The notes below the pieces were generated by a model, which saw only the letters and a list, made by a program, of their open reading frames with translations, did no database searches and was not told the DNA's origin. A stretch of 64,000 bases of DNA from an uncultured Anaerolineales bacterium (GTDB taxonomy: Bacteria > Chloroflexota > Anaerolineae > Epilineales > JAANWY01), in NCBI GenBank assembly GCA_964532665.1, contig CAZHMV010000002.1, forward strand, positions 14,510-78,509. Reading direction: 5' to 3'. Positions within the stretch are counted from its first letter, which is position 1. Each line of letters opens with the position of its first letter. A program made the translations under genes and the position numbers. Positions 3,067 through 53,006 of this stretch are shown here, piece after piece.

Positions 3067-3110
3067 GCACCTCTCCTTGCAAGATCTTGCTTCTGCACAA
3101 CAGAGGTGCG

Positions 3111-3190
3111 CAAAACGTGAAGCGTGAAACGCGAAGACCGTAGGTGTGTCGCGTGATCATCACGTTTCACGTTTTACGTTTCACGCACGC
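3111..3190. repeat. family-B heptamer-array hairpin (CGTGAAA/ACGTTTT arms); right arm overlaps the argH stop
   Basis: aaaacgtgaagcgtgaaacgcgaag ... cacgtttcacgttttacgtttcacgc inverted arrays read directly. Confidence 0.75.
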
Positions 3191-5994: not shown

Positions 5995-6060
5995 CTTCAG
6001 TTTTCCTGAGTCCCTCCGAAGTTCCTCTGAGTTCCCCTTCTCCTTCAGTCTCGCTTGAAC
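5995..6060. repeat. GAGTTCC-type array at the argG 3' end / argJ upstream region
   Basis: tgagtccctccgaagttcctctgagttcccc; overlaps the last codons/stop of argG. Confidence 0.6.
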
Positions 6061-7317: not shown

Positions 7318-7417
7318 TTGTTAGTGATCAGTGAACAGTAATCAGTGAACAGTAATCAGAAATCGGTGGCCGAAGCAACTGATCACTGATCACTGATTAC
7401 TGATCACTGATCACTGG

Positions 7418-7425
<8 letters not shown>
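7318..7425. repeat. family-A heptamer-array hairpin (CAGTRAT x4-5 / ATYACTG x4-5) between carB stop and argG RBS
   Basis: gtgatcagtgaacagtaatcagtgaacagtaatcag ... ctgatcactgatcactgattactgatcactgatcactg; terminal cagtaa supplies the carB TAA stop. Confidence 0.85.
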
Positions 7426-10813
<3,388 letters not shown>

Positions 10814-10844: not shown

Positions 10845-10925
10845 AAATACAGTAAACAGTGATCAGTCATCAGTGATCAGAATATCACACTGATGACTGA
10901 TCACTGATAACTGGACACTGGTCAC
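10845..10925. repeat. family-A heptamer-array hairpin upstream of carB
   Basis: cagtgatcagtcatcagtgatcag aatatcaca ctgatgactgatcactgataactg. Confidence 0.85.
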
Positions 10926-10941
10926 TGAAAAGGGAGGCTTG

Positions 10942-11400
10942 ATGGATCCTCGAATGGCAGCCCGAGAATGGTTTCTGGATAAGCCGGGCAACAACAAATA
11001 CGACATTGAAGTTCACGTTCAGCGATCTTTCTGGCATAATGGTTTCGGTGAAGCCTTTTTCCGCTGTACGAAAGCGGATCCTCCGTACAAATGTGTCGGG
11101 TTCTGGCGTGGCCAGGAAATCGAGTTCGAGTGGGTGCCTCGCCAATGGCTGACCCTGTCTATGCAGGAATACGATGCCGGTGTTGTCGATGGTTTCAGCG
11201 GCGTCATGCACCTTAAACCCTCACTTCGGTACACTGTCGTCGCGTCGTCGAATAGTCACAACCCCGATGAGGGGGAGCCGGCTGAAGCCGAACCCACCAC
11301 TCAGGAGCAGTTTGTTGTCGAATGGCACGTTCGCGATGTCGAGCAGCGGCTGCGCGAACTGGCGGAGCAGGCCGGCGTGCGAGATGTGCAGCGGGTGTAG
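10942..11400 (+). CDS. hypothetical Trp-rich protein of atypical composition, inserted between carB and carA on the opposite strand
   Basis: 152 aa intact ORF; AGGGAGG RBS 4 nt upstream of ATG; A/T-rich third codon positions unlike flanking genes; no recognisable domain. Confidence 0.45.
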   Translation: MDPRMAAREWFLDKPGNNKYDIEVHVQRSFWHNGFGEAFFRCTKADPPYKCVGFWRGQEIEFEWVPRQWLTLSMQEYDAGVVDGFSGVMHLKPSLRYTVVASSNSHNPDEGEPAEAEPTTQEQFVVEWHVRDVEQRLRELAEQAGVRDVQRV

Positions 11401-11496
11401 GGTGCAGATGCAGCCGCGTTGCCGGCGAGAGCCGCCGAATGAATTCGCCGGCTGATACCGCCAAACCCGTTGAAACGGGTTCGGATCGCTTGTCGA

Positions 11497-11525
11497 ACGC
11501 GCTTCAGCGCGTTTTCGGTAGCAGG
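11497..11525 (+). terminator. hairpin GAACGCGC-TTCA-GCGCGTT + TTTCGG
   Basis: 8-bp stem then U-run; 3' of the + strand ORF, next to a second hairpin AACCCGTT-GAA-ACGGGTT. Confidence 0.4.
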
Positions 11526-11533
11526 CCGCGAAT

Positions 11534-12700
11534 TCATTCGTGGCCGGTGTCAGCCACGAATTCACTCGTTGCTTGCATCATCTCTGTAAACCGCCGAAAC
11601 AAATACATCGCATCGTGCGGCCCGGGCGATGCCTCCGGGTGGTACTGCACACCAAAAGCCGGCCACTCCCGATGCTGCAGCCCCTCCACCGTCCCGTCGT
11701 TCAGATTCACGTGCGTCACCTCGACACTGGCCGGCAGCGAATCCGCATCGACGGCGAAGCCGTGGTTGTGGGTGGTGATCTCCACCGCACCGGTGGCCAG
11801 CTGCTTCACCGGTTGATTCCCCCCCCGATGGCCGAACTTCAGCTTATAGGTCGATCCTCCCAGTGCCAACCCGAGAATCTGGTGCCCCAGGCAAATGCCG
11901 AAGATGGGCACCCGCCCAAGGAGTTGCCGAACGTTCCGCACGGCATAGTCAGCGGCGGCCGGATCGCCAGGACCGTTGGACAGGAACACGCCCTCGGGCC
12001 GTAGATCGAGAACGTCTTCAGCCCCGGTGTAGGCCGGCACCACCATCACCCGACAGCCGTGGTCGTGCAACAGGCGCAGGATGTTGTGCTTGATGCCGAA
12101 GTCGTACGCGACAACGCGGAACGTCGGAGCATCAGCAACGATTTCCTTCGCTTGACCCGGGAGCGCCGGACGTACTCCTCCACGCCAGGTGTACGCCTCC
12201 TTGCACGTGACCACTTCCACCAAATCCCGCCCGACCATGGCCGGCGCCTGCCGGGCTTTACGGACCAGGCTGCCGGAGTCGAGATCCACTGTTGATAGGA
12301 CGCCTCGCATAGCGCCTTCGGACCGAATGTGACGAACCAGGGCGCGGGTATCGACGTCGGTGATGCCCACCACGCCGTGCTCACGCATCCACGATTCCAG
12401 ATCGGACCAGGCGCGCCAGTTGCTGGGCCAGGCGTGATACTCGCGCACCACAAAGCCCTCCACCCAGGGCCGGCCCGATTCCAGGTCATCCGGGTTTACC
12501 CCCACGTTGCCGATGTGCGGGGTCGTCATGACCACGATCTGGCCGCAGTACGACGGATCGGTCAGAATCTCCTGGTAGCCGGTCATCGACGTGGTGAACA
12601 CCACCTCGCCGGCCCGCTCGCCAGTCGCCCCGAACGCCCGTCCTGCAAAAACGGTTCCATCTTCTAGAGCCAGCAAGGCCGGCTGCTGTAGTCCCCTCAT
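11534..12700 (-). CDS. carA: carbamoyl-phosphate synthase small subunit (glutamine amidotransferase)
   Basis: CPSase small-chain N-domain + class-I GATase (GICLGHQ..H..E); likely start [15 protein letters not shown] (track ORF runs upstream through repeat B2). Confidence 0.93.
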
Positions 12701-12702
12701 CT

Positions 12703-12740
12703 CACCGAATACGCAATACGCAATACGCAGTACGAACGCC
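12703..12740. repeat. family-B half element (ACGCAAT ACGCAAT ACGCAGT ACG), one arm only
   Basis: ctcaccgaatacgcaatacgcaatacgcagtacgaacgcc between GNAT stop and carA start. Confidence 0.7.

Positions 12741-13246: not shown

Positions 13247-13247
<1 letters not shown>
12741..13247 (-). CDS. GNAT-family N-acetyltransferase; candidate short-form N-acetylglutamate synthase
   Basis: 168 aa; acetyl-CoA motif [15 protein letters not shown]; embedded between argD and carA in the arg cluster. Confidence 0.7.
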
Positions 13248-14467
<1,220 letters not shown>

Positions 14468-14486: not shown

Positions 14487-14572
14487 AAGTACTGCGTATT
14501 GCGTACTGCGTAGCGTGATCTTCGGCGCCACGTTTTACGCAATACGCAATACGCAGTAGGCAATAGGCTCAC
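14487..14572. repeat. family-B heptamer-array hairpin between argB stop and argD RBS
   Basis: agtactgcgtattgcgtactgcgtag cgtgatcttcggcgccacgtttt acgcaatacgcaatacgcagtagg. Confidence 0.85.
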
Positions 14573-15321
14573 CCTACGACAGCAGTTCCAGCACCACCCG
14601 CCAACCCCGCCAGATCGGTGATCCTCGCCTCCCGCACGCCGGCGGCAACCGCCGCCAGCGCCGAGCGCACTTTGGGGACCATGCCGTCGCGAATCGTGCC
14701 ATTTTCAATCAGCTCTTCGGCTTCCGCAGCCGACAACTGGCTGACGACCTGGCCATTGGCCAGAACGCCGGCCACGTTGGTCAGGAAGTACAGCGCGGAC
14801 GCGCCGAGCGCCCGCGCCACGCCCGTGGCGACGTGGTCAGCATTAACGTTGTAAGTCTGGCCGTCGAAACCCAGCGACACCGGCGACATTACCGGGACGA
14901 TACCCTGCTGTAGCAGCATCCGCAGCGGCTCCGGATCCACTTCGACGACACGCCCGACCCAGCCCAGGTCGCCGGCCGGGTGCACCATCTTCTCAACCCG
15001 CACCAGACCAAGATCGACGCCGCTGAGTCCGAGGGCAGGCACGCCGGCCATGGTCAGCCGCGCCACCAGCCGCTTGTTGACCCGCCCGCTCAGCACCATC
15101 TCGACAACCACCAGTCCGTCGTCGTCCGTGACGCGCAGCCCTTCGACGAAGCGCGGTTTCAGTCCCAGTGTCTTCTGGAGCCACGCAATCTCCTTGCCAC
15201 CGCCATGCACGATGACAACATGCTCCTCCATCCGCGCCACCGTTTCAGCCAGCGCGCAGAGAAACGCGTCATCACCTGCCTGACTTCCACCCACTTTAAG
15301 AACAATCGTCGGTTCATCCAT
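14569..15321 (-). CDS. argB: acetylglutamate kinase
   Basis: 250 aa; amino-acid kinase fold, LKVGGS N-terminal motif; GAGGA RBS. Confidence 0.93.
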   Translation of the reverse strand: MDEPTIVLKVGGSQAGDDAFLCALAETVARMEEHVVIVHGGGKEIAWLQKTLGLKPRFVEGLRVTDDDGLVVVEMVLSGRVNKRLVARLTMAGVPALGLSGVDLGLVRVEKMVHPAGDLGWVGRVVEVDPEPLRMLLQQGIVPVMSPVSLGFDGQTYNVNADHVATGVARALGASALYFLTNVAGVLANGQVVSQLSAAEAEELIENGTIRDGMVPKVRSALAAVAAGVREARITDLAGLAGGAGTAVVG

Positions 15322-15342: not shown

Positions 15343-15420
15343 GTATTGCGTCTTGCGTCTTACGTCTTGCGTATTTCATAGACGTAAGACGCAAGACGTG
15401 AGACGTGAGACGTCTCACGC
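15343..15420. repeat. family-B heptamer-array hairpin (GCGTCTT / AAGACGC variants) between argC stop and argB
   Basis: gtattgcgtcttgcgtcttacgtcttgcgta tttcatag acgtaagacgcaagacgtgagacgtgagacgtctcacgc. Confidence 0.85.
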
Positions 15421-16428
15421 CTCCAACCCTGCCACCTCCTCCATCCCAAACATCACATTGAAGTTCTGCACCGCCTGGCCAGACGCGCCCTTGATCAGAT
15501 TGTCAATCGCCGAGCAGACGATCAGTTGGTCGTTGCCGGCCGGCGTGAGCGAGATGACACAGCGGTTGGTGTTGACCGCGTGACGCAGGCTCGCCAGTTG
15601 GCCCGGCGGCAGGATGTGCACGAAAGGCTCGCCGGCATACATCTCGCGATACAACGCGTGCAACTTGCTTTCGGACCAGGGCTTCGCCAGGGTGACGTAC
15701 ATGGTGGACAGGATGCCCTGGTTGACCGGCAGCAGGTGGGGGGAGAAGGTCACGCTGAGAGGCCGGCCCAGCGCCGTGCCCAGCTCGGCTTCCATCTCCG
15801 GGATGTGTCGGTGGCAATGCCCGATGTTGTACGGCGAGAAGTTGTCGTGTGCCTCCACAAAGTGGGTTTTCAGGTTCAGCCCGCGTCCGGCCCCCGAGAC
15901 GCCCGACTTGGAATCGACGATGATGGAGTTACCGGCAATGAGCCCCTGCTTCGCCAGCGGATACAGGCCCAGAATCACGCTGGTGGGGTAGCAACCGGGG
16001 TTGGCTACCAGCCGCGCGCCGGCGATCTCCTCGCGATAAAGCTCGGTCAGGCCGTACACCGCCTCGGCCAGCAGGTTAGTGGCGGTGTGGGGCGTCTTGT
16101 ACCACTGCTCGTACACCTTCGGGTCCGACAGCCGGAAATCTGCGCTCAGGTCGATGGCGCGCACGCCGGCTTCGACTACCCGCTGCACCGTGGGAATCGA
16201 CGCCCCGTGCGGCAGGCACAGAAGCGCGGCATCCACCTCATCGACGGGCGCTTCGTCGGTGGGAATGAGGGGGATGTCCCACGGGCAGGCGAAGACGTCG
16301 GACAGCCGGCGGCCGGCGGATCGCTCCGACGTGGCAAAGCGGATTTCGGCGTTGGGGTGCCGGCGAATGATTTTTGCCAGCTCGAATCCGGTATAACCAG
16401 TTGCACCAAAGATACCTACTCTAAGCAT
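15415..16428 (-). CDS. argC: N-acetyl-gamma-glutamyl-phosphate reductase
   Basis: start MLRVGIFGATGYTGFEL (ATG at 16428); Cys active-site region; track ORF runs further upstream. Confidence 0.93.
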   Translation of the reverse strand: MLRVGIFGATGYTGFELAKIIRRHPNAEIRFATSERSAGRRLSDVFACPWDIPLIPTDEAPVDEVDAALLCLPHGASIPTVQRVVEAGVRAIDLSADFRLSDPKVYEQWYKTPHTATNLLAEAVYGLTELYREEIAGARLVANPGCYPTSVILGLYPLAKQGLIAGNSIIVDSKSGVSGAGRGLNLKTHFVEAHDNFSPYNIGHCHRHIPEMEAELGTALGRPLSVTFSPHLLPVNQGILSTMYVTLAKPWSESKLHALYREMYAGEPFVHILPPGQLASLRHAVNTNRCVISLTPAGNDQLIVCSAIDNLIKGASGQAVQNFNVMFGMEEVAGLEA

Positions 16429-16762
16429 GATCCTTCTCTCCTGAGGACAACGGGCGATAGTTGGAGGAGACGTAAGCCATTCGGGTACTTGACATGTCAA
16501 TGCATCAAAAAAGCCCTCCAGGTTATCTGGAGAGCTCCGATTGCGCGTGTTACGACGCCGTCGTCGTGGGTGCAGGACTATCCAGACCCTGGCCGTTTGG
16601 TGAGGCCGGGACGACGACGCAGACGAAGTTCAAGCACAAAGGTCTGGATATCCATAGCCATCTCTTGGGGCAACAGTATAGCATGAAAATCCTGTCCTGT
16701 CAAACGTGAAAGCGCGGTAGTCAGAAGGCACAAGAGTCCGCCAGTGTACCGCGCAGCGGCAT

Positions 16763-16802
16763 CACGCCAACAAAAGACGGGCACCATCTCTGGTGCCCGT
16801 TC
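16763..16802 (-). terminator. rho-independent terminator of cspA
   Basis: minus strand AACGGGCACC-AGAGAT-GGTGCCCGTCTTTTGTTGG directly after the csp stop. Confidence 0.65.
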
Positions 16803-16822: not shown

Positions 16823-17032
16823 CTAGAGCTTGACGACACTGACGGCTTGCGGTCCCTTGGGGTTCGATTCCACGGCGAATTCCACGCGATCGCCCTCGTC
16901 CAAATTACGGAATCCATGGCCTTGAATCTCAGAGTAGTGAACGAAGACATCCTCGCCCTCTTCTCGCTGAATGAAGCCATAGCCCTTGCTACCATTGAAC
17001 CACTTCACGGTTCCGGTGATACGCTCGGTCAT
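16823..17032 (-). CDS. cspA: cold-shock protein (CspA family)
   Basis: 69 aa; KWFN..KGYGFI RNP1 and VFVHY RNP2 motifs. Confidence 0.95.
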
Positions 17033-17207: not shown

Positions 17208-17546
17208 ATCGCAACGTAGAGGGCTTGCGCAGCCAGTCCAGACGGGGAGATTCTCATGGATGATGACACTTGACGGCCGGCGGCACGACCTTCTGCCCCC
17301 CGGATCCCCCGGCGTCCTCGCAGGGCGGGTCTTCGTGAGCCTGACCTTCCACGATGTAGGCGATCACCATCGGCTGCACGAGACGGTGCAGGGGATTGGC
17401 CGGCGCTGTTAAGCGACCCATGGTCAGGTAAGGTATCTGCGGACAGCAATGTCCGCACCATGAAGTGCAACCTCCACGATCAATTCGCGATCCCCGATGG
17501 CGTAGAACATTTGTCAGTCCCCAACCTGAACAAGGTAAGCGGATTG

Positions 17547-18128
17547 TTACAGCAGTGAGATGTCAGCCTCTACGAGATTATCAAGCAAGGTTTGAGTTAT
17601 ATCTCGCGCCAAAATAATCAGCCGTCTGTTCCTGTCGTACTGTTCGCCGTCAAATTCCATTTTGCGGCCGTGGAACAGGTTGTTCCGAATCTGTCGCACG
17701 ATCTCCATCATTGCTTCGAAGGCATCTCCTGTCCAACACTCCGCTATTTCAGGCCGGCAAAGATCTGGATTGCGACGACGCATATTGCCTTCGCAATTAG
17801 CCAGGGCGTCCTGAGACACAAAGTCTGCCTTATACAAGAGAAACATCGTAGCTCGAATCACTCTATCGTTCGGTCTGAAGTTTCTCATCGAGTCGCCGAC
17901 AAAGCCTTCGCAAGCTAATCGGCCCGCCAGTCCCCTCACTTCAGGTACAGAGTTCCAGAAATAAGCCCCGAACCTGTCACAGAAACTGCCGAAGGTGCCT
18001 ACTTGACGATTGGTGCGCCAGTAGCCCTCCAACCATTCGTATGCTTCGTGAAACGCCCGGCGCGCTTCGCGGTATTCCTCATCACTTTGAAGGCGATGGC
18101 GAAAGAGCTGGATCTCCTCGGCGGTCAT
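17547..18128 (-). CDS. hypothetical protein with HEPN-like Rx4HxR motif (RNNLFHGR) near C-terminus; possible abortive-infection/toxin-type RNase
   Basis: intact ORF; GGAGAA RBS 8 nt upstream of ATG 18128 (MTAEEIQLF); lower GC (~50%) than surrounding genes; all-helical composition. Confidence 0.45.
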   Translation of the reverse strand: MTAEEIQLFRHRLQSDEEYREARRAFHEAYEWLEGYWRTNRQVGTFGSFCDRFGAYFWNSVPEVRGLAGRLACEGFVGDSMRNFRPNDRVIRATMFLLYKADFVSQDALANCEGNMRRRNPDLCRPEIAECWTGDAFEAMMEIVRQIRNNLFHGRKMEFDGEQYDRNRRLIILARDITQTLLDNLVEADISLL

Positions 18129-18426
18129 GACATTCTCCAATCGTCTGTCTGCTCGTGCTCTGTCTTGAGCGTATACTAACCTGCACCGTGCGTCCATAAC
18201 CTAGGGAGGGGAGTCCAGTTTTCGGGGCTAATCATACAGAGACCGATGGGTGAAAGGACGTTGCCGCCCAGTCCGGCTCCCACAAGCCGACTGTTACCCG
18301 ATCGACATCGCGGGACAGGGCTCAAGTTTCGTCGTATCTATTTGTGGAAACTCATGTGGTTGTCGCCATGAGCGTACATGAGCCCACCGGTACATCGGAC
18401 GATCGTAGTGACGCCAAGATCGCTGA

Positions 18427-19440
18427 TTATCGCGACTGATGATTCACCAATGGTAGATAAACCATATATGAGTATGCAACTTCAATGGTCTCCGACAGAC
18501 CGTTCACAACCCTCCAGTACGAGGGGGGGCCACATACAGTAGGATTACTTGATCTTAATCCTGTTACCTCACCTAAGATCGTGAGGGCAACCTTGGCTGT
18601 TCCGGGCTTTATTGTCCGAAAGCTGAACGTGAATGACGACTGGCCACCTGGCACCAATATCAGATGCTGCATGACGGGCCCCTGACCGGAAGGCTCTAGC
18701 ACAGGAGAGCCTCTGACGTAAAGAGTCAACTGGGGCATTCCAAAACAGAATCGTTCGCTGCTGTTGTAAATATAGGTCGTTACTTCAAGGGGTTCCCCCA
18801 TGCTAAGGGAATTCCTCGAAGGCACGACTTCCGCTCGGAAGGTGTTATTCTGGAGTGTTAGCGTTGGGGTTGGGGTTGGCGTATTTGTTGGAGTACGGGT
18901 GATTGTCGGAGTCACTGTACACGTAGCTCCAGGTGTGGGTACCCCAAAGTGCCGGGCGACGTTATTGGTCTCATCGAGTTCGGCCACATCGTTAAATACG
19001 TCTACTACAACCGCAGTGATGGTTCCCCTGCCGGACAAACAGGTTTCTTCATCTGCATCTAGACCACCGACTGTTTCGAGACGCCCCCCAATTCCATACA
19101 ATTGAACGTCGAACGCAGCTGCCGGGGCTTCTCCTCTGTTCAAAATGCACGCCCTATAGGAATATCCCCAAACACCTGCACAACCGTGTCCGGATCCGCC
19201 ATTATCTACACTGGATACCATCAAGTCGGGGAGTGGTACAGAGGGCATTGATGTCGCGGTGGCCGTTGACGTGAAAACTTGCGTTGTTTGGTCACTCAAC
19301 GCTGAGGCATATGTCCGATCTGGTTCTTCCCAGCTGTTTCCCCTCAGATACGCCGGATGGCTTGACGTTGCCGAAACCACATCGATCAGCATAATAATGC
19401 TGACCATGCTAGTGACCATCCAAGCTCGTATGTTTCTCAT
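18427..19440 (-). CDS. secreted protein with CARDB-like domain and Thr/Pro linker
   Basis: N-terminal signal/TM (MRNIRAWMVTSMVSIIMLIDVVSA); CARDB-like segment ...AFDVQLYGIGG...ETNNVA; PTPTPT linker; low GC. Confidence 0.6.
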   Translation of the reverse strand: MRNIRAWMVTSMVSIIMLIDVVSATSSHPAYLRGNSWEEPDRTYASALSDQTTQVFTSTATATSMPSVPLPDLMVSSVDNGGSGHGCAGVWGYSYRACILNRGEAPAAAFDVQLYGIGGRLETVGGLDADEETCLSGRGTITAVVVDVFNDVAELDETNNVARHFGVPTPGATCTVTPTITRTPTNTPTPTPTLTLQNNTFRAEVVPSRNSLSMGEPLEVTTYIYNSSERFCFGMPQLTLYVRGSPVLEPSGQGPVMQHLILVPGGQSSFTFSFRTIKPGTAKVALTILGEVTGLRSSNPTVCGPPSYWRVVNGLSETIEVAYSYMVYLPLVNHQSR

Positions 19441-19938
19441 GTCTTCTTTGCTTTCCGCTTCTGCTAGCTGATTGCCCATATGCTCTTAATCGCTACGACG
19501 GCATCGTCAAGCCTCCCACGGTCGTCACCCCCCTAGCTGGCATGGCCTAGATCGGCCAGTGCAACAGCCTTTATTCGCAGCCCGCCTGCTCCATGAGAGC
19601 CGCACGGTTGTGTGAAACCAGCCCCCACACATGCAAACGCCAACTCTGGACGGGAGACGTCCAGCCGCTGGCGTCGTGTTAAGAGTCTACATCTGTTGTA
19701 TTGTCTTGGCAAAACCAAGTACAGGGCCAAGATCATTCCAGTTCCCCCTTGCCAACCACGTAAGAGAAGTAAGATCAATGGTCTATCGGATTATACCAGA
19801 AGCAATCGGGGCGCGTCAACTGTTTTTTCAGAAGATACGATTCCGTTACCTTTGACCTGGATTGTAAAATCCAGGCCGAGGACAGTCGCGTAACGTAATG
19901 TTACGGTGTCGAAACCCGTCATTGTACCTGAAAGGTTA

Positions 19939-20051
19939 CTACTCAGCCACCCTCCCGCAGGTTGCGATGCGCAATGGTTTTGCATCCGCAAGCGGCCTTG
20001 AAGCAGCGATTCTGGGCCAGAAAGGCTCCAAACCTGCGGGAGGGTGAGTAG
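19939..20051. repeat. ~113-nt element with 22-nt terminal inverted stems (CTACTCAGCCACCCTCCCGCAGGTT ... AACCTGCGGGAGGGTGAGTAG), copy 1; flanked by direct repeats TACC(C)TGAAAGGT
   Basis: read directly; second copy at 49301-49414 with identical termini and diverged interior. Confidence 0.8.
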
Positions 20052-20631
20052 CTACCCTGAAAGGTCGGAAACGGGGCCTGGACCATTCCGATTTCCTGTC
20101 AGACTTGCGGCCGGCATAACATACGGCCGAATAAGTCCGTTATTATATGGAAGGGGGGGTCATCATCTTCAACTCCGTCATAGACTCGATAGAGACAGCC
20201 CAGCCGGCATGATGGTGTCGGCAAGGCTCTCACATTGTCGCCTGTCGCCGGCGTCGAGGTTCGCAACTCTGACTGCGTTTACACTCTTTTAACAGCCGGC
20301 TAAACACCACGTAACACTCGCGTGCGATGATGTCACCGCACCGGACGATGACCTGTAAGTACCTGCCAGGTTTCGGCGGGACGAAGCAGATGCTCTCGCC
20401 GCCACAGTCATTCACAGATTTTTCAAAGAATATTTAGCCAGCAGTGCTCGCGGCGTCTCAGTTCTGTGGTATACTATTGACTGCCGCGAATCGATCGTGT
20501 ATCTGCATTCGGCCGAGGCATGAGATTGCCTGCCCCTCGTGCGTTGACGTCTCCCTGTGGGGAGTGTTGATCGCTCTCTCCAGAGGCTCCTGCTGAGACG
20601 GCGAGTTTGTCCAGATGGAGGAGCAAAGCGC

Positions 20632-21120
20632 ATGAAGATAAGATGGGTCACAGCTTGTGTCGCCGCATTGGCCGTGCTGGCGCTCGGCTCACTAACTGTC
20701 TTCGCGGAATCGCCCAGACCAGAGTGTGACAGAACCGATTCCGCTAGCCTGTGCCAGGCCAATATCACGATATTCGTGTTTGTGGACCGTGTCACAAGCG
20801 GTGGTGGCGCGTTCTACGAAAGTGGCGTTGATTCCCCCCTGGAGGGTGCTCGGATTACTTTCGTCATGCCCGACGGCAGCCGGCAACAGGAAGTCACCGG
20901 CCGCACCGGGCTTCTCAGCTTCCCGGACGTCAACTTTTTGCCCGGGGACGAGGCATTCATCGAGGTTGAATACCCGGCCCGGTACCGCGATGCCGCACTT
21001 GTTCCATGCCGCAGCAGCCCCGTGCGCCGGCGCATCACGCACGATGCCTTCGGCTCCTTCGGTTCGACGCAGGTTGTCTTTTGTGCCAGGCAGTATCTGT
21101 CCACCCCGACCGGGCCTTGA
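20632..21120 (+). CDS. secreted hypothetical protein
   Basis: GGAGGAG RBS 7 nt before ATG; signal peptide MKIRWVTACVAALAVLALGSLTVFA; no recognised domain. Confidence 0.55.
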   Translation: MKIRWVTACVAALAVLALGSLTVFAESPRPECDRTDSASLCQANITIFVFVDRVTSGGGAFYESGVDSPLEGARITFVMPDGSRQQEVTGRTGLLSFPDVNFLPGDEAFIEVEYPARYRDAALVPCRSSPVRRRITHDAFGSFGSTQVVFCARQYLSTPTGP

Positions 21121-22623: not shown

Positions 22624-22682
22624 ACAGTGAGCGTCTTGCGTCTTGCGTCTTACGTCTTACGCAAGACGCAAGACGCAATTAT
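22624..22682. repeat. family-B heptamer-array hairpin (GCGTCTT x3 / AAGACGC x3) between proS stop and phosphatase start
   Basis: gcgtcttgcgtcttgcgtcttacgtcttacgcaagacgcaagacgcaatt. Confidence 0.85.
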
Positions 22683-26808: not shown

Positions 26809-28536
26809 ATGTACTTCGACACTCTGACCATCTCGGCGATTGCCGATGAGCTTCGTGCGCAGGTCGTCGGCGGGCGGGTGCAGCACGTGGTACTGCCGGA
26901 CGAGCTGTCAGTCGCGCTGGAGATCTACGCCCATGGGCAGCGGCGTTATCTGCTGGCTTCAGCCAACGCGCAAACTGCGCGCGTGCACCTGACGGACGAG
27001 AAGATCCGGCGCGGCGTGGACACAGAGACGCCCCTGCTTCTGCTGCTCCGCAAATACGTGCGGGGTGGGCACCTGGTCGAGGTGGTGCAACCACCATGGG
27101 AACGCATCCTCCGCCTTCGGTTCGGTCACCCGGAGGGTGAAACGACGTTGGTTGTGGAGACCATGGGCCGGCACAGTAACATCATGCTGCTTGTCCCGAG
27201 TCCAATCGAGGGGCTCGATGAGGGCAACGTCGTGCTCGATGCCGTCAAACGGGTGACGCCGGCCATGAGCCGCGTGCGCCCGATCCTCCCACGGACCCCC
27301 TACCAGCCGCCCCCACCCCAGGACAAACTCCCCCCAGATCAACTCACAGAACGCCGCATACGTGACATGCTAGATGCGGCCGATCCGGATGAACCGTTGT
27401 GGCGGGTTCTGTTGCGTGGCATCCTGGGTCTCAGCCCGCTCTCAGCCCGCGAGGTGGCCTACCGGGTGGCCGGCCACCCCCGAGCTCCGGTGAGCGCGGT
27501 CGAGATGATCTCCCCTTTGCCCGAAGCGATAGCGGCCTTGTTCGCGCCGGTGGGAACAGGCGACTGGCAGCCCACGTGGGTGCGCGAAAATGACGAAATC
27601 ATCGCCTTTGCGCCCTACCCTCTGACCCAATACGAGAGCTACGAGCCGGCCAACAGCATCAGCGCGATCGTCGGCGCGTACTTCGCCCAGGAGATCGGGC
27701 GTGACACCTACGCGCAGGCACGCGGCAGCGTGCAGGCGCTGATCGACGAGGCTCGCGGGAAGCTGGAGCGCCAACGGCAGTCACTACAGCGATCCCTGGT
27801 TAGTCAGGAGGAGATGAGCCGGTTGCGGCAGAGCGGTGAGTTGATCCTGGCCTACCAGTGGCAGATTGGACCGGGTCAGACGGTGCTCGAAGCACCGTAC
27901 GAAATCGGCGGCGAACCACTCCACATCCAGCTTGATCCGGCCAGGACGCCGGTGGAGAACGCCCAGGCTTACTTCGAGCGATACGACAAGGCGAAGCGGG
28001 CCGGCCAGCACGTGCCCACCCGCATCGCCAGCACGAAGCTGCGGTTAGACTACCTGGAGCAGTTGGCAACCGATCTGGCTCTCGCGGAGAGCCGGCCCGA
28101 CATCGACGCGGTGCACGAGGCGTTGGTGGATGCCGGCTTCGTCCCGGAGAAGCGCCGGCGCCGGCCTTCGGGCCGCAGCCAGCCGATCCGGGTTGAGATC
28201 GACGGTTTCACGGTTTGGATTGGGCGCAATGCCCGCCAGAACGATGATGTGACGTTCAAGCGCGGTACGGCCAACGATCTCTGGTTGCATGCCAGAGGCA
28301 TCCCCGGGGCGCACGTGGTCATCAAGCAGGCCGGCCACCCCGCGCCCGAGCCGGTGATCCTCGCTGCAGCGCAGCTTGCTGCCTATCATTCCAGCGCTCG
28401 CAACGACGCGCGCGTGGCTGTAGACGTCACCGAAGTCCGTCACGTCCGTCGCATCAAAGGCGGCGCACCCGGGCAGGTGGTGTATTCGCATGAGCGTACG
28501 CTGCATGTGGAGCCCAGGCGGGAGAAAAGAGATTAG
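26809..28536 (+). CDS. rqcH: RqcH / NFACT-family ribosome quality-control protein (FbpA-like)
   Basis: 575 aa; NFACT-N (MYFDTLTISAIADEL..GRHSNIMLL), coiled-coil middle, NFACT-R/DUF814 C-terminus. Confidence 0.88.
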   Translation: MYFDTLTISAIADELRAQVVGGRVQHVVLPDELSVALEIYAHGQRRYLLASANAQTARVHLTDEKIRRGVDTETPLLLLLRKYVRGGHLVEVVQPPWERILRLRFGHPEGETTLVVETMGRHSNIMLLVPSPIEGLDEGNVVLDAVKRVTPAMSRVRPILPRTPYQPPPPQDKLPPDQLTERRIRDMLDAADPDEPLWRVLLRGILGLSPLSAREVAYRVAGHPRAPVSAVEMISPLPEAIAALFAPVGTGDWQPTWVRENDEIIAFAPYPLTQYESYEPANSISAIVGAYFAQEIGRDTYAQARGSVQALIDEARGKLERQRQSLQRSLVSQEEMSRLRQSGELILAYQWQIGPGQTVLEAPYEIGGEPLHIQLDPARTPVENAQAYFERYDKAKRAGQHVPTRIASTKLRLDYLEQLATDLALAESRPDIDAVHEALVDAGFVPEKRRRRPSGRSQPIRVEIDGFTVWIGRNARQNDDVTFKRGTANDLWLHARGIPGAHVVIKQAGHPAPEPVILAAAQLAAYHSSARNDARVAVDVTEVRHVRRIKGGAPGQVVYSHERTLHVEPRREKRD

Positions 28537-28686
28537 AGATTGGAGATTGGAGATTTCTCTACCGTGCACTTTTCGAGGGAAACGAGTTGTCAAGCCACCA
28601 CCGTAGGTGCTCTCATCCTGAAAAGTGTACGGTAGAGAATTGGAGATTCGAGATCCGGTCTCCAATCTCCAATCTCTAATCTCTCA
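28533..28686. repeat. nested palindrome: outer 25-bp arms of GATTGGA/AGATTAG heptamers, inner 17-bp arms, ~45-nt loop; between convergent rqcH and CYTH genes
   Basis: agattagagattggagattggagat...ctctaccgtgcactttt...aaaagtgtacggtagag...atctccaatctccaatctctaatct. Confidence 0.85.
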
Positions 28687-35564: not shown

Positions 35565-35738
35565 CGCAACGAATCGGCGTGGTAGCCACTCAGCCTGGCG
35601 ATTGAAATCGCGGCAACCCTTGCGAAGCCGGCCTGCGCCGGCTGAACACCAGTCGCCGAAGGGCGACTTCGCAAATGTTGGTGCAGTTTCAACTGCCGAA
35701 ATGTGTTTTACGTTTCACGCGGTCAGAAAGAGCAGCAA

Positions 35739-40502: not shown

Positions 40503-40565
40503 GAAGAATCTAACATACTGCGTACTGCGTAGGAAAGTGGTCTGTGCAATACGCAATACGCAGTA
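40503..40565. repeat. family-B heptamer-array hairpin (ACTGCGT x2 / ACGCAAT ACGCAAT ACGCAGT)
   Basis: catactgcgtactgcgtaggaaagtggtctgtgcaatacgcaatacgcagtacgcaatg. Confidence 0.8.
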
Positions 40566-40586
40566 CGCAATGTTTGGGAGGAGACA

Positions 40587-41615: not shown

Positions 41616-41624
41616 AGGAACATT

Positions 41625-41708
41625 CAGTGAACAGTAACCAGTGATCAGTAATCAGTGATCAGTGAATAGGATTCCGATTACTGATCACTGATTACTGATT
41701 ACTGAACG
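41625..41708. repeat. family-A heptamer-array hairpin
   Basis: cagtgaacagtaaccagtgatcagtaatcagtgatcagtgaa taggattccg attactgatcactgattactgattactg. Confidence 0.85.
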
Positions 41709-48133: not shown

Positions 48134-48212
48134 GACCAGTAATCAGTAACCAGTGATCAGTGATCAGTGATCAGACAACTGATCACTGATCACTGTTCAC
48201 TGATTACTGAAA
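48134..48212. repeat. family-A heptamer-array hairpin
   Basis: cagtaatcagtaaccagtgatcagtgatcagtgatcag acaa ctgatcactgatcactgttcactgattactg. Confidence 0.85.
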
Positions 48213-52892: not shown

Positions 52893-53006
52893 CCTCTGAC
52901 CAGTGATCAGTAATCAGTGATCAGTAATCAGTATTCGGCGATCAGTAATTGGCATCTGCTCACTGATTACTGATCACTGGATACCGATCACTGATCACTG
53001 GTTGCC
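52893..53006. repeat. family-A heptamer-array hairpin; right arm provides the TGA stop of the NYN gene
   Basis: ccagtgatcagtaatcagtgatcagtaatcagtattcggcgatcagtaattggcatctgctcactgattactgatcactggataccgatcactgatcactgg. Confidence 0.85.

Follow-up and report, generated by a model that had tools for sequence, protein, structure and literature searches.

What are the repeat hairpins that separate the arginine biosynthesis genes in a 64,000-nucleotide stretch of Anaerolineales DNA (contig CAZHMV010000002.1; the whole stretch is called the window here), and what maintains them? The focal element lies between argB and argD and consists of two inverted arrays of 7-nt units. Its units belong to family B, one of the unit classes found in the window beside family A. 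The reading we favor, at a probability of roughly 0.55, is that the hairpins are simple-sequence palindromes like the short tandemly repeated repetitive (STRR) elements of cyanobacteria, generated by slippage and homogenization of the two arms and transcribed as stem-loops that lie past a stop codon and ahead of the following ribosome-binding site. They probably contribute to stability, processing or coupling, or else persist because folding makes them tolerable.

An autocorrelation scan finds 15 strict period-7 arrays in the window, compared with zero to two for every other period from 4 to 12 and a mean of 0.0 (maximum 0) in 100 dinucleotide shuffles. Tandem Repeats Finder and an inverted-repeat finder return the same period-7 loci. 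The inverted heptamer-array hairpins of the original prediction, which was made from the letters alone, are thus real. Period 7 is specifically enriched, as expected for the tandem 7-nt unit of STRR-type repeats, and the 15 arrays resolve into 11 inverted-array hairpins and one lone array, giving 12 loci in 64 kb. Each of the 12 sits in a spacer, and one also overlaps a stop codon; copies are dispersed and intergenic, and some form hairpins inside operons, again as described for STRR. Five hairpins belong to family B, five to family A and one to an AGAGATT class. Their predicted stems comprise 18-64 pairs, and all 11 fold far more stably than shuffled sequence (z -3.3 to -12.2). The loci are as follows.

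14489-14565, minus strand: focal family-B hairpin in the argB-argD spacer; 23-nt arms, 96% complementary.
15346-15413, minus strand: family-B hairpin in the argC-argB spacer; 5' arm (YRCGTCT)5, 3' arm (ACGYAAG)4; z -8.9.
3106-3188, minus strand: family-B hairpin of the AACGTGA sub-type between argH and pheA; 32-nt arms; z -5.5.
22630-22679, minus strand: family-B hairpin of the TGCGTCT sub-type between proS and the PHP phosphoesterase gene; 3-nt loop; z -8.7.
40516-40571, plus strand: family-B hairpin of the TGCGTAY sub-type between oppC and oppD; asymmetric, 2.3 and 3.7 units; z -3.3.
12707-12734, minus strand: lone direct array, 3.9 units of TGCGTAT, lying past the GNAT stop codon and before the Shine-Dalgarno (SD) sequence and ATG of carA; no inverted partner; fold z -0.1.
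7323-7423, minus strand: family-A hairpin (CAGTRAW / ACTGATY) between carB and argG; z -11.7.
10850-10929, minus strand: family-A hairpin immediately upstream of carB; z -6.7.
41623-41706, plus strand: family-A hairpin between oppD and oppF; z -10.1.
48137-48210, plus strand: family-A hairpin between a 180-aa open reading frame (ORF) and an oppD-like ATPase gene; z -9.6.
52897-53003, minus strand: family-A hairpin between the co-directional NYN/YacP and ferredoxin genes; z -9.8.
28528-28684, no strand: third-class hairpin (AGAGATT / AATCTCY) between the convergent NFACT and CYTH genes; -90.6 kcal/mol, z -12.2; the outer arms surround a second, inner stem.

The lone array had been described as a half element, which is accurate. 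A supposed fragment at 35695-35720 does contain about two units (GTTTTACGTTTCACG), but these are not separable from chance. It adjoins an imperfect palindrome in the DUF3179-PD40 spacer (35597-35697) that has 48-nt arms, 73% complementary, with outer ends reading GATTGAAATC…GCAGTTTCAAC, and is not heptameric.

The hairpins are not an assembly artifact, because three independent metagenome assemblies are 100% identical over the argB region, hairpins included. Hairpins at these junctions are also present in relatives from other studies. The population itself occurs in the JGI samples 3300023444, 3300023507 and 3300023503. Within the window, 11 of the 12 loci lie between co-directional genes, the exception being the AGAGATT hairpin, and 11 of about 25 same-direction spacers of at least 45 nt are occupied. 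The divergent promoter gaps contain near-consensus promoters and zero arrays.

Three genes frame the focal hairpin and its neighbor.

15415-16500, minus strand: argC, by Pfam.
14569-15321, minus strand: argB, by Pfam; TGA stop at 14571-14569.
13247-14467, minus strand: argD, by Pfam; ATG at 14467, SD GAAGGAG at 14480-14474.

In the mRNA sense, the focal hairpin has a 5' arm of (TGCGTAY)n at 14536-14565, a loop of ~23 nt and a 3' arm of (TACGCAR)n at 14489-14512, with a predicted energy of -51.1 kcal/mol for the RNA (z -6.9) and of -29.8 kcal/mol for the DNA (z -6.2). The domain begins 5 nt past the argB TGA, and the repeat stem stops at ~14489, 8 nt before the argD SD, in line with the proposed placement just upstream of the next SD. 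Other copies are similarly tight. The proS hairpin begins 3 nt past the stop codon, the oppC-oppD hairpin ends 4 nt before the SD GGGAGGAG, the 5' arm of the argH-pheA hairpin encodes the final argH codons and the TAA stop, and a small additional palindrome in the argC-argB spacer (GTGAGACGTCTCAC) takes in the argC stop codon. In each of the 18 hairpin-bearing spacers from the window and its relatives, the fold begins at -3 to +16 nt relative to the upstream stop, and it ends 0-52 nt before the next start codon.

The 40 family-B units, phased on their core, follow the grammar W-R-C-G-T-N-N, with C at position 3 in 40/40, G at position 4 in 38/40 and T at position 5 in 38/40. They fall into three sub-types, TGCGTAY, TGCGTCT and AACGTGA. 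An alignment of the six copies gives a mean column identity of 40%, in which the RCGT core alone is shared, only GCGT is invariant and the loops and flanks are unrelated; hence there is no longer consensus. Units and copy numbers vary too much between copies for a column-wise match. The proposed alignment yields a grammar, but not a longer shared sequence. Written in the same phase, family A is TCAGTGA, only two bases from the TGCGTGA unit of the relative L004, which makes families A and B classes in a continuum. The view of family B as a distinct dispersed repeat family is not sustained: it is one unit class in a continuum with family A, AGAGATT and others, and a given junction switches class between close relatives. 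What does hold is the constant architecture, with inverted arrays kept while units differ between copies.

Comparison with related genomes shows how the elements change. The genomes nearest to the window are Anaerolineae and Anaerolineales metagenome-assembled genomes (MAGs); the window's ArgB shares 93% identity with the protein of an "Anaerolineae bacterium" MAG (L001) and 75% with that of an Anaerolineales MAG. The argC-argB-argD region was compared in eleven relatives, listed here with their ArgB identity to the window.

Window (100%): argC-argB GCGTCTY / ACGCAAG, 5+4 units; argB-argD TGCGTAT / TACGCAR.
L001 (93%): argC-argB unit as in the window, 3+2 units, exactly 21 nt shorter; argB-argD CAGTRAT (family A).
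L149 (91%): argC-argB ACGTGAA ×3 / TCACGTT ×3; argB-argD CAGTRAT (family A; contig end inside the array).
L150 (83%): argC-argB TACTGCG / ACGCAGT; argB-argD GCGTACT.
L004 (82%): argC-argB GCGTGAT ×5 / ATCACGS ×3; argB-argD beyond the contig end.
L152 (80%): argC-argB no hairpin, 36-nt spacer, possible TCACGCATC remnant; argB-argD AGAGATT / AATCTCC.
L151 (79%): argC-argB before the contig start; argB-argD TTGGTCA-like.
L153 (75%): long non-heptamer structure at argC-argB and another at argB-argD.
L002 (75%): argC-argB none, 25 nt; argB-argD without a heptamer hairpin, contig end inside the spacer.
L155 (72%): argC-argB TGCGTAY ×8 / TACGCAR ×3; argB-argD none, 54 nt.
L154 (70%): argC-argB TGCGTAN ×4 / TACGCAN ×3; argB-argD none, 42 nt.
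L156 (67%): argC-argB none, 58 nt; argB-argD none, 22 nt.

Seven lineages spanning 70-100% ArgB identity have a hairpin at argC-argB, built from GCGTCTY, ACGTGAA, TACTGCG, GCGTGAT or TGCGTAY units, and at argB-argD the unit is TGCGTAT, GCGTACT, CAGTRAT, AGAGATT or TTGGTCA-like. In every hairpin-bearing lineage the 3' arm complements its own 5' arm, and the SD block GAGGACTCGATC on the 3' side of the argC-argB hairpin is conserved. Comparison of these orthologous junctions indicates that the unit sequence turns over fast while position and architecture persist. Length changes occur in whole units, as indicated by the differences from L001, which is 89% identical: exactly 21 nt at argC-argB, and exactly 7 nt at the lone GNAT-carA array, one unit shorter in L001. 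Hairpin-bearing spacers measure 79-152 nt. Five of the seven spacers free of repeat hairpins measure 22-58 nt (L156, L002, L155 and L154), the sixth is 36 nt (L152) and the seventh (L153) is long and contains the non-heptamer structure. Neither junction has a hairpin in the deeper relatives L002, L003 and L156, so the hairpins are a derived feature of a sub-clade and not ancestral to the operon. This two-junction series amounts to an unusually clean natural experiment, in which structure is retained or regenerated and sequence is replaced in 7-nt units.

Strong stems directly after stop codons, one of them between convergent genes, could point to transcription terminators or attenuators that split the arg cluster into separate units. 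Terminator and promoter scans covered 2.5-17 kb, 21.5-30 kb and 34.5-54 kb and do catch a canonical site, which serves as a local reference for the appearance of a genuine terminator in this genome.

16777-16800, minus strand: canonical intrinsic terminator, a GC-rich stem followed by CTTTTGTT, located 3' of the cold-shock gene.

The same scan does not pick out any heptamer hairpin. None of them is followed by a T-tract, whichever strand is read, or by a promoter-like site, and SD sequences lie 2-11 nt 3' of the element where read (B2, B3, B4 and B6 of family B). Lacking a U-tract, they are rejected as intrinsic (Rho-independent) terminators. Furthermore, the relatives show differing units and copy numbers, which sets aside the objection that the hairpins might be simple conserved terminators. 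We consider a terminating or attenuating role extremely unlikely.

Palindromic, intergenic, multi-copy sequences with the same unit types at several loci also invite comparison with miniature mobile elements, mobilized by a transposase from another part of the genome, and the argB-argD spacer is seemingly swapped wholesale between the window and L001. Repetitive extragenic palindromic (REP) sequences, bacterial interspersed mosaic elements (BIMEs) and REP doublets forming hairpins (REPINs) are likewise abundant intergenic imperfect palindromes, often within operons, for which mRNA-stabilizing roles have been proposed (PMC3733652). They are defined by a fixed 20-40 nt sequence, a GTAG or CGTC head and a cognate REP-associated tyrosine transposase (RAYT) (PMC3733652, PMC2817692, PMC3116915). 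The elements studied here, in contrast, have no fixed sequence and are tandem 7-mers that vary by whole units, including the length differences between relatives. The REP/REPIN identity fails on sequence: no conserved palindrome with a GTAG or CGTC head is common to the six aligned copies. A Pfam scan of ~50 window ORFs reveals no transposase, RAYT or reverse-transcriptase domain. Identity as miniature inverted-repeat transposable elements (MITEs) fails as well, as loops, termini and flanks are not conserved between copies and no target-site duplications are seen. Mobile elements of either kind are therefore a very unlikely explanation. Rfam 15 at gathering thresholds returns 0 matches over the whole window. 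A different, MITE-like palindrome occurs in L001, where a ~260-nt insertion between carA and the downstream region (L001 6908-7170, opposite window ~11418-11484) is absent from the window and is bounded by a long inverted repeat (CATGTCATTCCGAACGGAGCGCTAGCGGAGTGAGGAATCCCTG … complement).

The STRR-like reading has two components. Its origin component, slippage with arm homogenization, is reasonably supported. At the DNA level, arrays would lengthen or shorten by whole units through replication slippage, while concerted evolution would keep the arms complementary, whether through templated correction inside the palindrome or because pairing is selected. Units could drift or be replaced, giving fast sequence turnover within a persistent design, and neither a transposase nor a conserved element body would be needed.

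The second component is a role at the RNA level, in stability, processing or coupling at operon junctions, which we infer from the placement and predicted folds. The arrays would be transcribed within polycistronic mRNAs, with the base of the stem abutting the upstream stop and its end falling shortly before the next SD. For the arg genes, this transcript appears to start at a nearby promoter.

16675-16703, minus strand: sigma-70-like promoter, TTGACA-17-TATACT, 11/12 matches, extended TG; upstream of argC.

Stems of this kind may block 3'-to-5' exonucleases or offer a double-strand-specific cleavage site, such that segments of the operon decay independently. They may also draw the next start close to the stop codon, in which case translational coupling would survive an insertion of ~100 nt; this proximity would explain why operon junctions tolerate insertions only if these fold on themselves. 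Should the stems indeed insulate or couple cistrons, engineering would gain simple intercistronic parts that can be tuned. Functional analogies are available: intercistronic RNase III sites occur in phage T7 early mRNA, where stems set segment stability and processing. Protective RNA structures similarly shape the differential decay of operon segments in Escherichia coli (PMC5927463). No homology is implied in either case, and those structures have conserved unique sequences and not simple-sequence arrays.

If pairing matters in the mRNA, the sense strand might fold better than the antisense strand. Over the window and relatives, sense RNA is more stable in 13 of 19 spacers, by a mean of -4.1 kcal/mol (Wilcoxon p 0.045), a bias driven mostly by the more degenerate hairpins of L155, L151, L004 and L150. 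This is suggestive, not proof, of pairing maintained in mRNA.

A further regularity concerns the order of the arms. Paired bases of the 5' arm contain more G than C in 22 of 23 hairpins from the window, the arg relatives and two Acidobacteriota loci, not all of which are independent; this polarity, that is, which arm comes first, is identical when read from either strand. A scan of metagenome contigs for ACGCAANACGCAANACGCAA returns more than 120 contigs with G+C of 0.32 to 0.71. Where the flank of an ACGCAA-type array is long enough, 13 distinct hairpins have their complementary partner upstream and 2 have it downstream, giving 5'-(TTGCGTN)n...(NACGCAA)n-3' in agreement with the rule in the window. 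With the G-rich arm first, the C-rich, G-poor arm might never be exposed single-stranded to Rho, reducing Rho loading inside operons, though Rho avoidance as the cause of the polarity is speculation. The rule could help to separate RNA-level explanations (co-transcriptional folding, Rho avoidance) from DNA-level ones. In L092 (~9204-9316), L093, L033 and L074, a G-rich heptamer array leads directly into a non-complementary ACGCAAY array, rich in C and A, that lies just upstream of a start codon; such neighbors retain the polarity without pairing.

Several observations weigh against the STRR-like reading, or at least against its RNA-level part. We infer co-transcription, folding in vivo and processing from sequence. 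RNA-level selection is not established, because the sense/antisense asymmetry is weak and absent in the window, where both strands fold equally well (G-U counts 16 vs 18), and because DNA-level homogenization alone would also yield matching arms. The same few units (ACGCAAN, TNACTGA and AGAGATT) recur across unrelated contigs and phyla, which pure local slippage does not predict. Finally, the hairpins are dispensable for arginine biosynthesis, as L152 (at argC-argB), L153, L002 and L156 have the same operon without them.

Much of this would suit a purely neutral reading, which is a serious rival even if we regard it as unlikely. The hairpins would then be a functionless by-product of slippage and palindrome homogenization in permissive spacers, where self-folding inserts are near-neutral and have no effect on expression. 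Their absence from several relatives with the same operon, the short ancestral spacers, the rapid and outright replacement of units, the many unrelated junction types occupied (including that between convergent genes) and the lack of strand asymmetry within the window are all in keeping with it. However, the argC-argB hairpin is kept in seven lineages down to 70% ArgB identity, the 5' edge abuts the stop codon in 18/18 spacers and there is a weak sense-strand stability bias. Moreover, neutral generation should give both polarities, contrary to the 22/23 rule and the 13 vs 2 count in metagenomes.

Recurrence of the same few heptamers across phyla (PMC4679880) could alternatively reflect arrayed protein-binding sites, on RNA for S1, a cold-shock protein or a CsrA-like factor, as suggested for TAACTGA arrays, or on DNA, with the inverted copy sequestering or regulating the binding arm beside the ribosome-binding site. 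The polarity does put an A/C-rich arm beside the downstream start, and family-A 3' arms read TNACTGA forward next to start codons, as in Beggiatoaceae. In addition, a Nostoc preprint reports that deletion of a heptamer repeat affects expression, with reporter output changed in Nostoc and E. coli (bioRxiv 10.1101/2022.06.06.494920). A sequence-specific reader is nevertheless hard to reconcile with a unit that changes completely at one junction between close relatives, and the lone GNAT-carA array presents the opposite, G/T-rich sense next to its start codon. Relative to nearby ORF starts, lone ACGCAA arrays at 80 metagenome loci are only weakly sense-biased (27 vs 16, p 0.13, not significant, with a noisy ORF heuristic). 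Binding sites thus seem a quite improbable account.

We keep open, as a slim chance, that an active process common to several phyla writes the arrays and imposes their polarity, or that the A/C-rich arm near start codons is read by a dedicated RNA-level system. The reasons are the 22/23 polarity, the 13 vs 2 count in metagenomes, the unit recurrence at G+C 0.32-0.71 and the non-complementary pairs of L092 and L093. One active route could start with G-rich heptamer repeats being added, at a break or stalled fork, to each of the two 3' ends, which are then joined; on either strand the 5' arm would then be G-rich and the 3' arm C-rich, and heterologous arm pairs, as seen in some metagenome contigs, would be allowed.

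Among described repeats, the cyanobacterial STRR sequences are the closest match. These repeats have a 7-bp unit and form hairpins, for example in the hupS-hupL spacer of Anabaena, Nostoc and Lyngbya; their function is unknown, and for the hupS-hupL hairpins greater transcript stability or translational coupling has been suggested as a role (PMC2670836). The window shares with them the tandem 7-bp unit, the dispersed intergenic distribution and the intra-operon hairpins. It differs in its host, a member of the Anaerolineae (Chloroflexota) and not a filamentous or heterocystous cyanobacterium, in its dominant units (W-R-C-G-T-N-N, TCAGTGA and AGAGATT), and in that the inverted, hairpin-forming arrangement is the rule (11/12 loci). 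The canonical STRR1-3 units are CCCCAGT, TTGGTCA and CAACAGT. None is among the window units, and only the relative L151 carries TTGGTCA-like units, which presumably match STRR2. To our knowledge, unit replacement at orthologous junctions and the G>C polarity of the 5' arm have not been described previously. The Nostoc heptamer repeat ATTGCGA (csR4; PMC2408588) is one base from the TATTGCG unit seen here.

TAACTGA arrays, known from marine Beggiatoaceae, Cyanobacteria and Bacteroidetes, are a second relevant class. They are intergenic, with 2-6 copies, and end a few nucleotides before a start codon, and related heptamers are rare; of 170 sets, 169 are direct and one is inverted, and a canonical SD is rare downstream (MacGregor 2015, PMC4679880). 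As in the window, they occur in essential operons, with a scattered phylogeny and no visible mobility mechanism, and in this same forward orientation the family-A 3' arms are mixed variants of T[ACT]ACTGA. In the window, however, 11/12 loci are inverted pairs, an SD is present and family-B units are unrelated. Membership in the direct-repeat class fails on the unit (family B unrelated, family A mixed) and on the direct forward arrangement. The only lone array, at 12707-12734, has the G/T-rich sense beside the start codon, unlike the forward TAACTGA sets. In long simple sequence repeats (LSSRs) of prokaryotes, heptanucleotide units predominate, according to the survey of Mrazek et al. 2007 as summarized in PMC4679880. 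That summary shares with the window a unit length of 7, a sporadic distribution and a proposed slippage origin; it deals with direct arrays, and paired inverted arrays filling operon junctions do not figure in it.

The window's hairpins thus have precedents in the intra-operon STRR hairpins (PMC2670836) and the TAACTGA arrays (PMC4679880). No relevant description of heptamer repeats was found in the literature on Anaerolineae or Chloroflexi. The hairpins are best filed as STRR-like heptamer arrays in Chloroflexota with a dominant inverted arrangement, unit turnover and constant polarity. The orthologous series bears on the purpose and origin of the cyanobacterial STRR and other heptamer repeats, and it extends the question to Chloroflexota and Acidobacteriota. 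The architecture is also present in the latter, since two Pyrinomonadaceae/Acidobacteria gp4 contigs carry heptamer-array hairpins upstream of argB (L011 3244-3367 and L013 6118-6244), with units GAGTTTC / GAAACTC and GTTTCAA / AACTCAA.

The surrounding DNA has a G+C of ~60%, and the arg genes are on the minus strand. Pfam gives the order argC, argB, argD, GNAT, carA, carB, argG, argJ, argH and prephenate dehydratase (pheA), and it also assigns ProRS, a PHP phosphoesterase and two Opp-type ABC operons, all consistent with the gene identities first proposed. Family B had been placed at every junction of the arg cluster; it occupies only four of about nine. Two of the remaining junctions have family A, one has a 10-mer array and two are overlapping genes without a spacer. 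Nor are the hairpins special to the arginine operon, as they recur in the two Opp operons and at the proS-PHP, NYN-ferredoxin and convergent NFACT/CYTH junctions. The prediction that naive ORFs read through the arrays into pseudo-peptides is correct for argD, whose false N-terminus contains AYCVLRKT, and for carA, which is also extended, but the argC extension crosses no array. Anaerolineae MAG annotations will carry such false N-termini.

Other repeats occur in and around the cluster. The argG-argJ spacer contains GGAACTC-like 10-mer repeats (6006-6035) in place of a heptamer hairpin. This class also recurs at arg junctions in relatives, as the L154 argB-argD spacer is built from GGAACTC/GGAGCTC units (L154 3283-3320). 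Inside carB (7418-10813, minus strand), in-frame arrays of 10-mers (GAACTCGGGG) and 8-mers (CTTTTCCC, GTGAGGGG) at 8726-8801 and 9455-9571 encode low-complexity inserts between otherwise complete CPSase domains. Downstream of argB in L002 (8150-8250), a short ORF consists of 12-mer repeats (CCCTTCGACAGG ×3, CTCAGGACGCCG ×3) and is preceded by a single heptamer-like relic, CGCGTATTGCGC.

Three further regions deserve mention. A cold-shock protein gene (CSD; 16823-17032, minus strand) with its own canonical terminator lies directly upstream of the arg operon. Cold-shock proteins are among the candidate heptamer-binding proteins of MacGregor (PMC4679880), and the adjacency is probably coincidence. 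Between carA and the family-A hairpin before carB, an interval of ~700 nt (10885-11565) contains ORFs of 108, 114 and 153 aa, none with a Pfam match, and shows 89% conservation in L001; the arg cluster may here include a small gene that escaped annotation, or a non-coding region. Finally, the stretch at ~17500-21000 has a G+C of 0.53, compared with ~0.60 elsewhere, and its ORFs mostly have no Pfam match, apart from one weak match to CARDB; it may be acquired DNA.

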